This document shows, piece after piece, positions 33,334-36,714 of a stretch of DNA of 64,000 nucleotides (positions within the stretch are counted from its first letter, which is position 1; every line of letters starts with the position of its first letter). Position numbers and translations under genes: made by a program. Origin of the DNA: Escherichia coli (GTDB lineage Bacteria > Pseudomonadota > Gammaproteobacteria > Enterobacterales > Enterobacteriaceae); assembly GCF_029227855.1 (NCBI RefSeq), contig NZ_CP074356.1; one strand, 5' to 3'. The notes beneath the pieces are model-generated. The model had not been told where the DNA came from. It searched no databases and was given only the letters and a program-made list of their open reading frames with translations.

Positions 33334-36300
33334 TTACTCGCTAACCATCTTACTGAATAACTTCTCCAGATAAACGGGGCCTGTATCCTCAATAAAAAGC
33401 ACATTTCTGGCTTCCAGATTTTCTTTTGAGTCAGGTACGTTTACTAAGTCAACATAACAAGTTTCAGAAACAATAAATGCACTTAATGATAAGTTATCAT
33501 CCGATAATTTATGTTCAAGATTCTTAATTTCTTTATATAATCCGAACTTCGGATCATCAAGATTAAGATTGCGAATGCCTTTTGGATCAATAAGACTTAG
33601 CCATTGTTTACCACTTTTATCATCGACTAACCACAATAAGAAATCCGGATAAAAATTACCCGCAGTAGCAAAGCCCAGGCCTTTATTTTTAGAATCCGCA
33701 TTTCTTAGCAGATATAAACTTTTATCACCAATAATTTTCTGCCCTTTTGTCGAATCAACAAAAGACTGAAGATCCTGAACAAAAGTAATCTCGCTTGGCG
33801 CACCAAGTGCTGCCGGTCGCATTTTTAGCGGTATATTGGCATTTTTTTCAATCGAAAGAAGCGGGTAATAGAGATGTTTATCAAAGGTAATAGCAACCAT
33901 CCCGGATGCACTCCAGGATTTTGCTTTACCGATTTCGCCGTCGATGACCAATTGTTGTAATTGTTCCAGCCGACTGGCATAAGCCAACCCATCATCAGTT
34001 TCTTCGATCTCGAAATGGTACATTTTGATCATACCAGGATCATCTTCTTTCACCTGCGTGACTTCATAAAACTGACCTTCATAAGCATTTTTCAAGGTGT
34101 TGTAAAAGCGATCAGTATAATCAGTCAGCAGACGAAGCATAATATCTTCCTGCTTAGCAATATCTGCATATTGCTTAATCTCAAGCTCTGAAGCTGGAAT
34201 CAAAAGGGTATACCAACTATTTCCGATCTTTGTCTTACCGGTACAAAAGTCGATCAAACGTTGTTTATCCACACGTAAATTTGACCAGCCGCGTTGTAGT
34301 TTATAATTCTGAATGGCGAGATAAAGCCGATCAAAATCAAATGCACTAATGATTTTATAATCTAACTTCGCTTCATTGCGCACGTTAACCGGAGTATTGT
34401 CCCCTTTTCTGCTGGTATCAATCGACTCAAGTTTCGGGTATAAGTCCAGCTTAATATGCGGCTGCTTAATTTTCCCCTGAAAATCAGCAGGAACTTCATA
34501 CAATTCGGGAAAATAGACACGTTTAAAGCCGAGTCTTTGATTATCTTTATAACCATCTTTAAGCTTAAGTGTTTTAAGCCTGGTTGCTGGCATATTTGGC
34601 CGAGTTTCAAAATTCAGCTCAAGGATCTCGTCACTTGGCGTAATCCCTTCATCTTCCAGGTATTGTTTAAAGGTTGCCATGTAATCGGCACGTACACCGA
34701 ATACATTCAGTGTCTCTAATTTTTCCAGATGCAACCCTTTCGGACGCTCACCGGGTGTACTGCGTTTCAAAGAATAATTGCGACCTTTAAGGCGTACGCC
34801 ACGACCAAATAACTGAATGATCTGTGAACCTTCTCCACGGCCCATATTGAGCAATCCCATCGTTGAGACGCGCCAACTGCTCCAGCCTTCAGTAAATTTT
34901 CGCGAGCCGATCAAAATATGTAGTCGCGAGTCTTTGTCATTTAACGTATGAAAGAGTGACTTTGCAAAATCATCTCTCTGATAATCAAATGTCGTATCCT
35001 CTTCACACATTTTGTAAAGAGACGGTGCATCACCAATATTGATAAGGCCAAACGGTTCGGCCTCACCAACCTGTAATGCCAGTTCACCTTTACTGCCTAT
35101 TAAATTCAGAACTCGCAGTCGCTGACCAGAGTGAGTGGTGTTAAACAAGCGAGAAAGAATATCTGCGTAGATATCTTCCGGAGCGTTCATTAGTGCAGTA
35201 AAGCGATTTTCAAAAATGTTACGCTCTTTGGTATCGAGGATTCGCGCTTTATTTTTAATGAGATCGTTAATCCACGCTTTTGCCTGCGTTTCGTGGTTTA
35301 AAAACCATGCTAAAAAACGCAATACTGCGTGAATGTCTGAATCTTCACCACTTACCGTATTACCGACAAAAACCCACAGCGGTTTTTCGATATTAAATTC
35401 ACTTAATTTTTCTTTATTCTTATTGAATAAATATTGTTGCTGATAAAAGCTGAGCAAACACGCGGTAAAATACTCATACCGACGCTCATCTTTTTTATCC
35501 TCTTCAGGATTAAGGTTAAGAATCAGTGATTCTTTACCATAACCATCCTCATAGAAGAATTTATAGGAGTAATCGAACAGAATCGATTTTCCATAGACCT
35601 CTCGCGTCGCCTGAATACGCGCATCTCGTTTTTCTTCGCTGGTTAATGCTATTTGCGCTAACTCTTCTTCGTTCAGTTTACCTAAGGCCGTTGTTTCAAA
35701 AAGCAGCTTTGCTTTTTTCTTCTGAATTTCTGTTTCAACTGCCTCAACATTATTGCCACCGGCTACTGCCTGGCCAAAAGTTGCTGAATATTCAAACGCA
35801 AATCCGTCACGTGTTAATTTGTCACGACGGCGCATCCAGGCACCAGCAGCACTTCCGGTGCCTTTATGCCCTTCATCAATCAGAACCAGATTGTTGCCTT
35901 CAAATGCCTCAACGGCAACAGTTTTGTCACCCATTTCATCGGCAAGTTTATTGATATCAATAACTTCAATCGTGCCTTTGAAGGGCGCAGATTTACTCTT
36001 ATCGAATAACTGGTATTGGGTAAATCCTGAGTTTTCCAGCTCATCTAAATGTTGCTTCGACAGGCGTTCATCCGGCGTAAGCAGGATGATTTTATCCGGG
36101 TAATGGTGGGTATTACCGTTCTGGAAATAATGTAAATATTGCAAAATATTGACATGCAATAGCAGTGTTTTACCCGAACCGGTAGCGTTCCAGTATGCAA
36201 GTTTATTCAAGTCATCTAGAATGTATGATTTGAACTGATTAGCCCGGTCTTTTGCTGTTTTATCATTTTCAGCATTGTATGCTGCCAGCTCGTTATTTAG

Positions 36301-36714
36301 CCCATCGAGTAATTGCTGTTTACGATTGAAGTACCAGTCCAGGTAGATCTCGGTAAACAGAAGCGACAAGTACTGAAAATATTTCATATTCAGCACGGTG
36401 TCTTCTTTGCGATTACGGTGCTCAGTTATCTGCTGCCAGTGCTGTACGATATTGAGATCGTAACGACGCAGTTCATCGAGATCGATAAGATCGACCTCGA
36501 ATAAATAGTTACTCAGCTCATGGAAGAACAAGCTTTGGCCATCTTCATGGATGCCTTCAAAGCGATCTTCACCTAACCGATTTTTTAAACCTTGCAATGT
36601 GCCATCTTTAAAAAAATGGAACATAAAGCGGTTCAAAACCAGTTGCTTATGAAAGCTCAGTTTGCTGTTTGTCTCTTTTTTAACAGCTTTACCGGTGGTC
36701 GGTTTTTTAGCCAT
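33334..36714 (-). CDS. SF2 helicase/ATPase with C-terminal PD-(D/E)xK-like nuclease motif (Type III Res-like)
   Basis: 1126 aa; Walker A NATGSGKTLL, DExH box VLIDEGHKG, motif VI QLFGRGVRLKG, C-terminal NFYPDF...LIDPKG; start is 2 nt after the methyltransferase stop. Confidence 0.7.
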   Translation of the reverse strand: MAKKPTTGKAVKKETNSKLSFHKQLVLNRFMFHFFKDGTLQGLKNRLGEDRFEGIHEDGQSLFFHELSNYLFEVDLIDLDELRRYDLNIVQHWQQITEHRNRKEDTVLNMKYFQYLSLLFTEIYLDWYFNRKQQLLDGLNNELAAYNAENDKTAKDRANQFKSYILDDLNKLAYWNATGSGKTLLLHVNILQYLHYFQNGNTHHYPDKIILLTPDERLSKQHLDELENSGFTQYQLFDKSKSAPFKGTIEVIDINKLADEMGDKTVAVEAFEGNNLVLIDEGHKGTGSAAGAWMRRRDKLTRDGFAFEYSATFGQAVAGGNNVEAVETEIQKKKAKLLFETTALGKLNEEELAQIALTSEEKRDARIQATREVYGKSILFDYSYKFFYEDGYGKESLILNLNPEEDKKDERRYEYFTACLLSFYQQQYLFNKNKEKLSEFNIEKPLWVFVGNTVSGEDSDIHAVLRFLAWFLNHETQAKAWINDLIKNKARILDTKERNIFENRFTALMNAPEDIYADILSRLFNTTHSGQRLRVLNLIGSKGELALQVGEAEPFGLINIGDAPSLYKMCEEDTTFDYQRDDFAKSLFHTLNDKDSRLHILIGSRKFTEGWSSWRVSTMGLLNMGRGEGSQIIQLFGRGVRLKGRNYSLKRSTPGERPKGLHLEKLETLNVFGVRADYMATFKQYLEDEGITPSDEILELNFETRPNMPATRLKTLKLKDGYKDNQRLGFKRVYFPELYEVPADFQGKIKQPHIKLDLYPKLESIDTSRKGDNTPVNVRNEAKLDYKIISAFDFDRLYLAIQNYKLQRGWSNLRVDKQRLIDFCTGKTKIGNSWYTLLIPASELEIKQYADIAKQEDIMLRLLTDYTDRFYNTLKNAYEGQFYEVTQVKEDDPGMIKMYHFEIEETDDGLAYASRLEQLQQLVIDGEIGKAKSWSASGMVAITFDKHLYYPLLSIEKNANIPLKMRPAALGAPSEITFVQDLQSFVDSTKGQKIIGDKSLYLLRNADSKNKGLGFATAGNFYPDFLLWLVDDKSGKQWLSLIDPKGIRNLNLDDPKFGLYKEIKNLEHKLSDDNLSLSAFIVSETCYVDLVNVPDSKENLEARNVLFIEDTGPVYLEKLFSKMVSE

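Follow-up and report, generated by a model that had tools for sequence, protein, structure and literature searches.

The EcoPI and EcoP15I enzymes and EcoR22I are the described systems to which the locus analysed here is compared. In EcoP15I, the restriction subunit Res is ordered as RecA1, RecA2, a helical spacer and a C-terminal endonuclease domain (PMC4490356), and cleavage by EcoPI and EcoP15I is described (PMC6158743, PMC3413136) as requiring two inversely oriented sites and ATP and as falling approximately 25–27 bp from one of the sites. EcoR22I is the Type III restriction-modification (R-M) system of Escherichia coli ECOR22 that is linked to a DrmD-like SNF2 gene, and its nuclease domain has already been called a PD-(D/E)xK restriction nuclease (Silas et al., bioRxiv 10.1101/2023.04.06.535777). 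According to the same work, mod and res without other genes are enough to restrict lambda-vir, transposon suppressors in ECOR22 fall in mod and res only, and neither mod alone nor res alone gives a cell-death phenotype. With the double substitution D1024A+D1043A in Res (the "PD-(D/E)xK" mutant), unmodified lambda-vir is no longer restricted and cell death triggered by Ocr is 100-fold lower, and lambda-vir passaged on the nuclease-dead host, and hence methylated, evades wild-type EcoR22I (bioRxiv 10.1101/2023.04.06.535777).

The window, which is the whole stretch of 64,000 nucleotides of E. coli DNA that was analysed (assembly GCF_029227855.1, contig NZ_CP074356.1), carries a cassette of co-oriented genes in the order SNF2, mod and res, with res in the last position. 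It is very likely that this cassette is a Type III-like R-M system and that res encodes its Res subunit, in which a C-terminal PD-(D/E)xK nuclease follows an SF2 helicase-like ATPase and a spacer.

The res gene and its helicase core

The res gene is an intact open reading frame on the minus strand (33334–36714) that encodes a Type III-like restriction subunit of 1126 amino acids, in which an SF2 helicase/ATPase core is followed by a C-terminal nuclease. The strand had been omitted from the sequence-only reading of this DNA. The helicase core that this reading had proposed from the Walker A, DEGH and QLFGRGVR motifs was recovered in full, with all three motifs located on the minus strand. Motif I (Walker A, GSGKT) occupies residues 179–183 (36166–36180), and its Gly179, Gly181, Lys182 and Thr183 are nearly invariant in an alignment of 61 homologues; motif II (DEGH, residues 280–283; 35866–35877) is likewise nearly invariant in the family. 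Motif VI (QLFGRGVR) spans residues 634–641 (34792–34815), with Gln634, Phe636, Gly637, Arg638 and Arg641 invariant in the family alignment, and is set by hhalign against the segment '...LQEVGRGLRL' of EcoPI Res.

The PADLOC model REase_III (PDLC03654) matches Res over residues 3–1124 with a score of 2326 bits, and the Pfam ResIII/DEAD match is confined to residues 167–313 (ResIII, E = 2.5e-7). NCBIfam holds no model for Res, a sequence search of the PDB with the full protein and with a C-terminal profile gave no meaningful relative, and a literature search by RefSeq accession or locus tag returned nothing. The RefSeq label of the product is DEAD/DEAH box helicase family protein (WP_001085525.1, in E24377A), and 'type III restriction endonuclease subunit R' is the existing name of the Res-type helicase in many database records.

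An AlphaFold2 model of full-length Res (pLDDT 86.4) includes an extra N-terminal helical region of approximately 170 residues. A Foldseek search of the PDB with this model retrieved generic SF2 dsDNA motors (Rad54, SMARCAD1, HsdR, MDA5), and EcoP15I Res was not among the top 50 matches. The protein displays motifs I, II (DExH) and VI of the SF2 helicase/ATPase that characterizes Type III Res subunits, on a predicted fold that resembles the dsDNA translocases Rad54 and HsdR.

The partner genes mod and SNF2

The gene immediately upstream of res, mod (36717–39838, minus strand), would encode a Type III β-class N6-adenine methyltransferase of 1040 amino acids if intact, but it is split in the window into two open reading frames (38474–39853 and 36717–38399, both on the minus strand). 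Both halves match the PADLOC model MTase_III (PDLC03646). The intact product in E. coli E24377A has 1040 amino acids and a Pfam N6_N4_Mtase (PF01555) domain, of the β class as in EcoP15I Mod. An adjacent, co-oriented β-class Mod gene, as found beside Type III res genes, is thus present, with its MTase_III and PF01555 matches and an IDPPY motif, although the window copy is frameshifted. Mod adjoins Res in nearly all related loci.

Alignment of the window mod with that of E24377A reveals a one-base deletion that leaves A6 (38480–38485) in place of A7 on the coding strand. A stop codon follows directly after the tract, and the N-terminal 458 amino acids are cut off from the catalytic part. In a set of 33 complete E. 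coli genomes with the same mod allele, 31 carry an A7 tract and two an A6 tract; the A6 mod of strain H22 was annotated as 'frameshifted' by PGAP. Phase variation at this tract as a designed switch was considered and found unlikely, the tract being only seven bases long and at its ON length in 31 of the 33 genomes.

We lean towards the view that the window cassette is decaying or switched off, with a Res that is intact but, without Mod, cannot find DNA. The deletion in the A7 tract, with the stop codon right behind it, the PGAP annotation of the same A6 variant in H22, the lack of a cell-death phenotype of mod or res alone in EcoR22I, and the guidance of Res to DNA and its stabilization by Mod in EcoP1 and EcoP15 all point this way; on the other side, Res and SNF2 are still full length in the window, and the A6 form, seen in only two of the 33 genomes, could reflect a slip that is reversible or an error in sequencing the homopolymer. 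Because mod is frameshifted, Res is guided by Mod in EcoP1/EcoP15, and res alone causes no cell death in EcoR22I, the intact window Res probably stands idle, provided that the loss of the base is not an artefact of sequencing.

The first gene of the cassette (39859–42750, minus strand) encodes a 963-residue SNF2-family helicase that is related to DrmD of DISARM. It has Pfam matches to SNF2-rel_dom and Helicase_C, and scores 663 bits against PADLOC DrmD. Its scores against the NCBIfam DrmD models are 667 bits for DISARM_DrmD_b (cutoff 950) and 294 bits for the other model (cutoff 610). An SNF2 gene adjoins the mod–res pair in 49 of the 55 loci whose flanks are long enough for assessment: 43 have it upstream of mod and six have it downstream of res, the latter mostly of Pasteurellaceae together with Cardiobacterium and Kingella. 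In a distribution scan of one genome per species, the Res nuclease domain was found in at least 579 genomes, in a range that includes Proteobacteria, Chlorobi, Verrucomicrobia, Spirochaetes, Lentisphaerae and Anaerolineae. The mod and res genes are separated by an insert of 0.5–1.9 kb in 25 loci (1.0–1.9 kb in all but one). Of the two inserts that were examined, one (L031) contains HEC-01, a candidate system in PADLOC that pairs HEC-01B with an AriA/MAD3-like ATPase, and the other (L018) contains PDC-S02, a YhcG-like PD-DExK protein.

The SNF2 protein appears dispensable, yet it accompanies Mod–Res in about nine of every ten loci. It is conceivable, though on balance unlikely, that SNF2–Mod–Res constitutes a distinct three-component Type III-like class that extends over several phyla, with a Res nuclease domain that falls in no Pfam family and shows no detectable sequence relationship to that of EcoP15I, and with a real role for SNF2 at native expression. 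If this were the case, SNF2 might, for example, help to load the Res nuclease or to license it, or provide a link between restriction and Ocr-triggered cell death, and its role may have escaped the published reconstitution because mod and res were over-expressed there.

That the SNF2/DrmD-like protein takes the place of Res as essential motor or effector, in a cassette that works in the manner of DISARM and not of Type III R-M, is highly improbable. The DrmD models are the best family matches of SNF2, and 49 of 55 related loci, from several phyla, have an SNF2 gene next to the pair; but its scores stay under the NCBIfam DrmD cutoffs, no nuclease domain was found in it with Pfam, the cassette has no DrmA, DrmB or DrmC genes, and in ECOR22 the transposon suppressors were confined to mod and res, which restrict lambda-vir by themselves.

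The C-terminal nuclease domain

The assignment of Res as the nuclease of the cassette rests on its C-terminal region, modelled as a PD-(D/E)xK domain at residues 926–1126 (33337–33939, minus strand), with a predicted catalytic core at approximately residues 970–1085. An exhaustive search with residues 878–1126 yielded 969 cluster representatives at E ≤ 1e-3; the complete proteins among these matches are nearly all of approximately 1000–1140 amino acids and carry the match at their C-terminus. Two alignments were built, one of 47 C-terminal domains of the family and the other of 61 full-length proteins, with identities to the query that reach down to approximately 32%.

AlphaFold2 prediction from the C-terminal alignment gave a model with a mean pLDDT of 86.9 and a pTM of 0.84, with which the full-length model agrees. 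The predicted domain starts with a helix (residues 973–987) that holds Glu975 and a strand (999–1004), followed by a strand (1025–1030) right after Pro1023–Asp1024, a strand (1037–1043) that ends at Asp1043, with Lys1045 two residues further, a helix (1055–1070) and a final strand (1075–1083). This predicted α-β-β-β-α-β order is that of the core of restriction-endonuclease-fold enzymes. In the model, the base of the β-2/β-3 hairpin brings Asp1024 and Asp1043 opposite one another. The fold relatives of the domain comprise Bax1 (score 8.3), VC1899 (7.9), NgoMIV (7.8), BstEII (7.8), Cfr10I (7.2), Can2 (7.1), I-Bth0305I (7.0) and BsaWI (6.9), followed by Bse634I, SgrAI, Cap4 and Vsr. A Foldseek search of AFDB50 with the C-terminal model returned members of the same family only, which contributed annotation but no link outside it, and a Pfam search with the C-terminal alignment found no family. 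The predicted structure thus includes the endonuclease domain with which the polypeptide of Type III Res subunits ends.

The motif itself, NFYPDF...IDPKG, is contained in NFYPDFLLWLVDDKSGKQWLSLIDPKG (residues 1020–1046; 33577–33657, minus strand), in which the codons of Asp1024, Asp1043 and Lys1045 lie at 33643–33645, 33586–33588 and 33580–33582, respectively. The glutamate of the upstream helix, Glu975, is encoded at 33790–33792, also on the minus strand. Nine residues (Glu975, Phe978, Arg1004, Asn1005, Pro1023, Asp1024, Trp1028, Pro1044 and Lys1056) are invariant among the 61 full-length homologues. Position 1043 is Asp in 60 of them and Glu in one, position 1045 is Lys in 57 and His in four, and Asp is found at both 1024 and 1043 in all the close enterobacterial homologues that were checked.

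Three candidate readings of the (D/E)xK element can be made in NFYPDFLLWLVDDKSGKQWLSLIDPKG, namely DDK (1031–1033), DPK (1043–1045) and DPK (1054–1056). Since the 'DDKSGK' segment of the motif string corresponds to a variable hairpin loop, the element is assigned, on conservation and the model, to Asp1043-Pro-Lys1045 at the end of the predicted strand β-3.

The bare pattern PD-x(8–30)-(D/E)xK occurs at least once in 43% of shuffled Res sequences, which is not above chance, and the signal in Res is therefore carried by conservation and fold and not by the pattern alone. That the string matches by chance only and that the C-terminal region is no nuclease, as this frequency and the lack of a Pfam or PDB sequence match for it might suggest, can be dismissed in view of the invariant motif residues in 61 homologues, the confidently predicted restriction-endonuclease fold and the loss of function in the published D1024A/D1043A mutant of EcoR22I.

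The residue numbers of this mutant connect the window protein to EcoR22I: in the window Res, the Asp of YPDF and the Asp of IDPKG bear exactly the numbers, 1024 and 1043, of the two residues replaced in EcoR22I. The link between the window Res and EcoR22I Res is considered strong, and is drawn through the species, the gene context and this exact residue numbering. The sequence-only reading had claimed a PD-(D/E)xK motif at the C-terminus of Res, and the claim is borne out by the invariant residues and the predicted fold. Of the checks it had proposed, structure prediction was run here and produced a restriction-endonuclease fold, not the absence of one, and mutation of the motif residues has essentially been done already in EcoR22I, with loss of restriction. 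Its further suggestion, that Res is the effector of the operon, gains support as well: because EcoR22I D1024A/D1043A loses restriction and cell death falls, Res is regarded as the nuclease effector of the cassette, probably inactive in the window strain as a result of the mod frameshift.

A mechanism may be proposed for an intact cassette of this type. By extension from EcoPI/EcoP15I and EcoR22I, Mod would recognize an asymmetric site, methylate the host DNA and keep Res bound to DNA. Where the DNA is unmethylated, the ATPase of Res would drive communication along it over long distances and cutting would fall to the C-terminal nuclease, with Glu975, Asp1024, Asp1043 and Lys1045 as the putative catalytic residues. 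The break would be made by two converging nuclease domains; this two-site, collision-dependent cleavage is taken from EcoPI/EcoP15I only. The restriction of unmodified DNA only, with dependence on both Mod and Res, is attributed to the cassette by analogy with the reports on EcoR22I.

The C-terminal nuclease of Res is already known, as it belongs to the standard Type III Res build, is catalogued, and has had D1024 and D1043 mutated in EcoR22I. With the motif already named, mutated and required for restriction in that system, the finding has little discovery value. Its value is for annotation: the RefSeq name of the res product refers to the helicase only, and the nuclease domain is covered by no Pfam model. 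The interest lies beside the finding, in why an SNF2/DrmD-like helicase travels with Mod–Res and in how Ocr binding becomes cell death.

Comparison with described systems

Class 1 DISARM, which consists of DrmD, DrmMI, DrmA, DrmB and DrmC, resembles the window cassette in that a DrmD-like SNF2 helicase stands beside an adenine methyltransferase. In contrast to Class 1 DISARM, the window cassette lacks DrmA (the DUF1998-associated helicase), DrmB and DrmC/PLD, its methyltransferase is of the PF01555 type, and a dedicated helicase-nuclease, Res, is present. An identity of the cassette with DISARM was rejected on the absence of DrmA, DrmB (DUF1998) and DrmC open reading frames and on the scores of SNF2 below both DrmD cutoffs.

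The likeness to EcoR22I is close. Both systems belong to E. coli, and each has a DrmD-like SNF2 helicase linked to its mod and res genes within a hotspot of mobile elements; unlike in active EcoR22I, the window mod is frameshifted.

With EcoPI and EcoP15I Res, the window protein shares the arrangement of an SF2 ATPase, a spacer and a C-terminal PD-(D/E)xK nuclease, and the pairing with a PF01555 Mod that is encoded immediately upstream. The C-terminus of EcoPI Res from phage P1 contains '...GGYTYSPDFAYVVKTAEGDYLNFIIETKNV...', with Asp898, Glu916 and Lys918, which parallels 'AGNFYPDFLLWLVDDKSGKQWLSLIDPKGI' in the window, so that the motif pair reads 'YSPDF...IIETK' in EcoPI and 'FYPDF...LIDPK' in the window Res. 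The spacing is D898-x17-E916-x-K918 in EcoPI (18 residues) and D1024-x18-D1043-x-K1045 in the window protein (19 residues). Asp898, Glu916 and Lys918 are reportedly the catalytic residues of EcoPI Res published by Janscak et al. in 2001.

The relationship to these enzymes was further analysed by hhalign in three ways: the family alignment was compared with the complete EcoPI Res sequence, the C-terminal alignment with the EcoPI C-terminus, and profile with profile. Motif VI and the PD hairpin were the only parts aligned, without significance. The profile–profile comparison of the two C-termini gave a probability of 2.4%, with only the PD hairpin aligned. The family PF19778 is present in all EcoPI C-terminal homologues and has no Pfam match in the window Res even at E ≤ 10. 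Membership of the window Res in the EcoP15I-like family (PF19778) was therefore rejected on the unmatched PF19778 and the hhalign probability of 2.4%. Because the hhalign probability is approximately 2%, PF19778 is unmatched and the Foldseek matches are without EcoP15I, the window protein is assigned, as judged from sequence, to a family of Type III-like Res proteins that is separate from that of EcoP15I. A common descent of the two nuclease domains is plausible. The window-type cassette further differs from EcoPI/EcoP15I in the length of its subunits, with a Res of 1126 amino acids that includes the extra N-terminal helical region (970 amino acids in EcoPI/EcoP15I) and a Mod of 1040 amino acids with an N-terminal extension of approximately 470 residues, and in the conservation of a third gene, SNF2.

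The homopolymer tract in mod

The Type III methyltransferase gene mod (36717–39838, minus strand) is split in the window by a one-base deletion in a homopolymer tract, which reads A6 at positions 38480–38485, as opposed to A7 in E. coli strain E24377A. The A7 tract is present in 31 of the 33 E. coli genomes with the same mod allele, and the A6 form of the gene is annotated as a frameshifted pseudogene in strain H22. Probably, the cassette is off in the window, or else the A6 tract is a homopolymer sequencing error.

Among distant relatives of the window cassette, the metagenomic locus L003 (4727–7820) likewise carries mod as two ORFs, of 363 and 669 aa, whereas the otherwise near-identical locus L002 has an intact gene of 1028 aa. 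The split in L003 hints that inactivation of mod recurs in the Mod-Res family.

Genomic setting and genes beyond res

The cassette in H22 (locus L090) is directly abutted by a tRNA-Leu gene (10691–10775), a known integration hotspot. By contrast, a CP4-57-like island segment adjoins the cassette in the window (42750–46000) and in E24377A, with genes for a CbtA/YeeU toxin-antitoxin, a JAB/RadC-like protein and an antirestriction protein.

Approximately 660 bp past the end of res, and convergent with it, lies a separate gene that encodes an HNH-type phosphorothioated-DNA-binding restriction endonuclease (31743–32672, plus strand). The encoded protein scores 438 bits with the NCBIfam model NF045808, whose cutoff is 180, and the gene is truncated in H22. 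The ORF of 100 aa between this gene and res (32985–33287, plus strand) is kept in both E24377A and H22, is annotated in RefSeq as hypothetical, and has no match in PADLOC or NCBIfam.

Inserts and substitutions in the Mod-Res family

The gap between mod and res holds an insert of 0.5–1.9 kb in many relatives (L031, L018 and 23 more loci), with a length of 1.0–1.9 kb in all but one. Gene content was read in L031 and L018, where the R-M operon has candidate defence genes nested within it: the L031 insert (5498–7266) encodes PADLOC HEC-01A, an AriA/MAD3-like ATPase, together with HEC-01B, and the L018 insert (6264–7283) encodes PDC-S02, a YhcG-like PD-DExK protein. Within Res itself, His replaces the catalytic Lys at the K1045 column in four members of the family alignment of 61 full-length homologues (IDPHG or IEPHG), which is an unusual change for a PD-(D/E)xK site.

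The SNF2 companion gene

The companion of the Mod-Res pair in the window, a DrmD-like SNF2 helicase (39859–42750, minus strand), is a conserved partner. An SNF2 helicase gene adjoins the pair in 49 of the 55 assessable loci, which span several phyla (related loci L009–L088). It is mostly located upstream of mod, and downstream of res in six loci, chiefly from Pasteurellaceae. In EcoR22I, the Type III R-M system of E. coli ECOR22 and one of the closest known systems, the SNF2 gene was reported to be dispensable (Silas et al., bioRxiv 10.1101/2023.04.06.535777).
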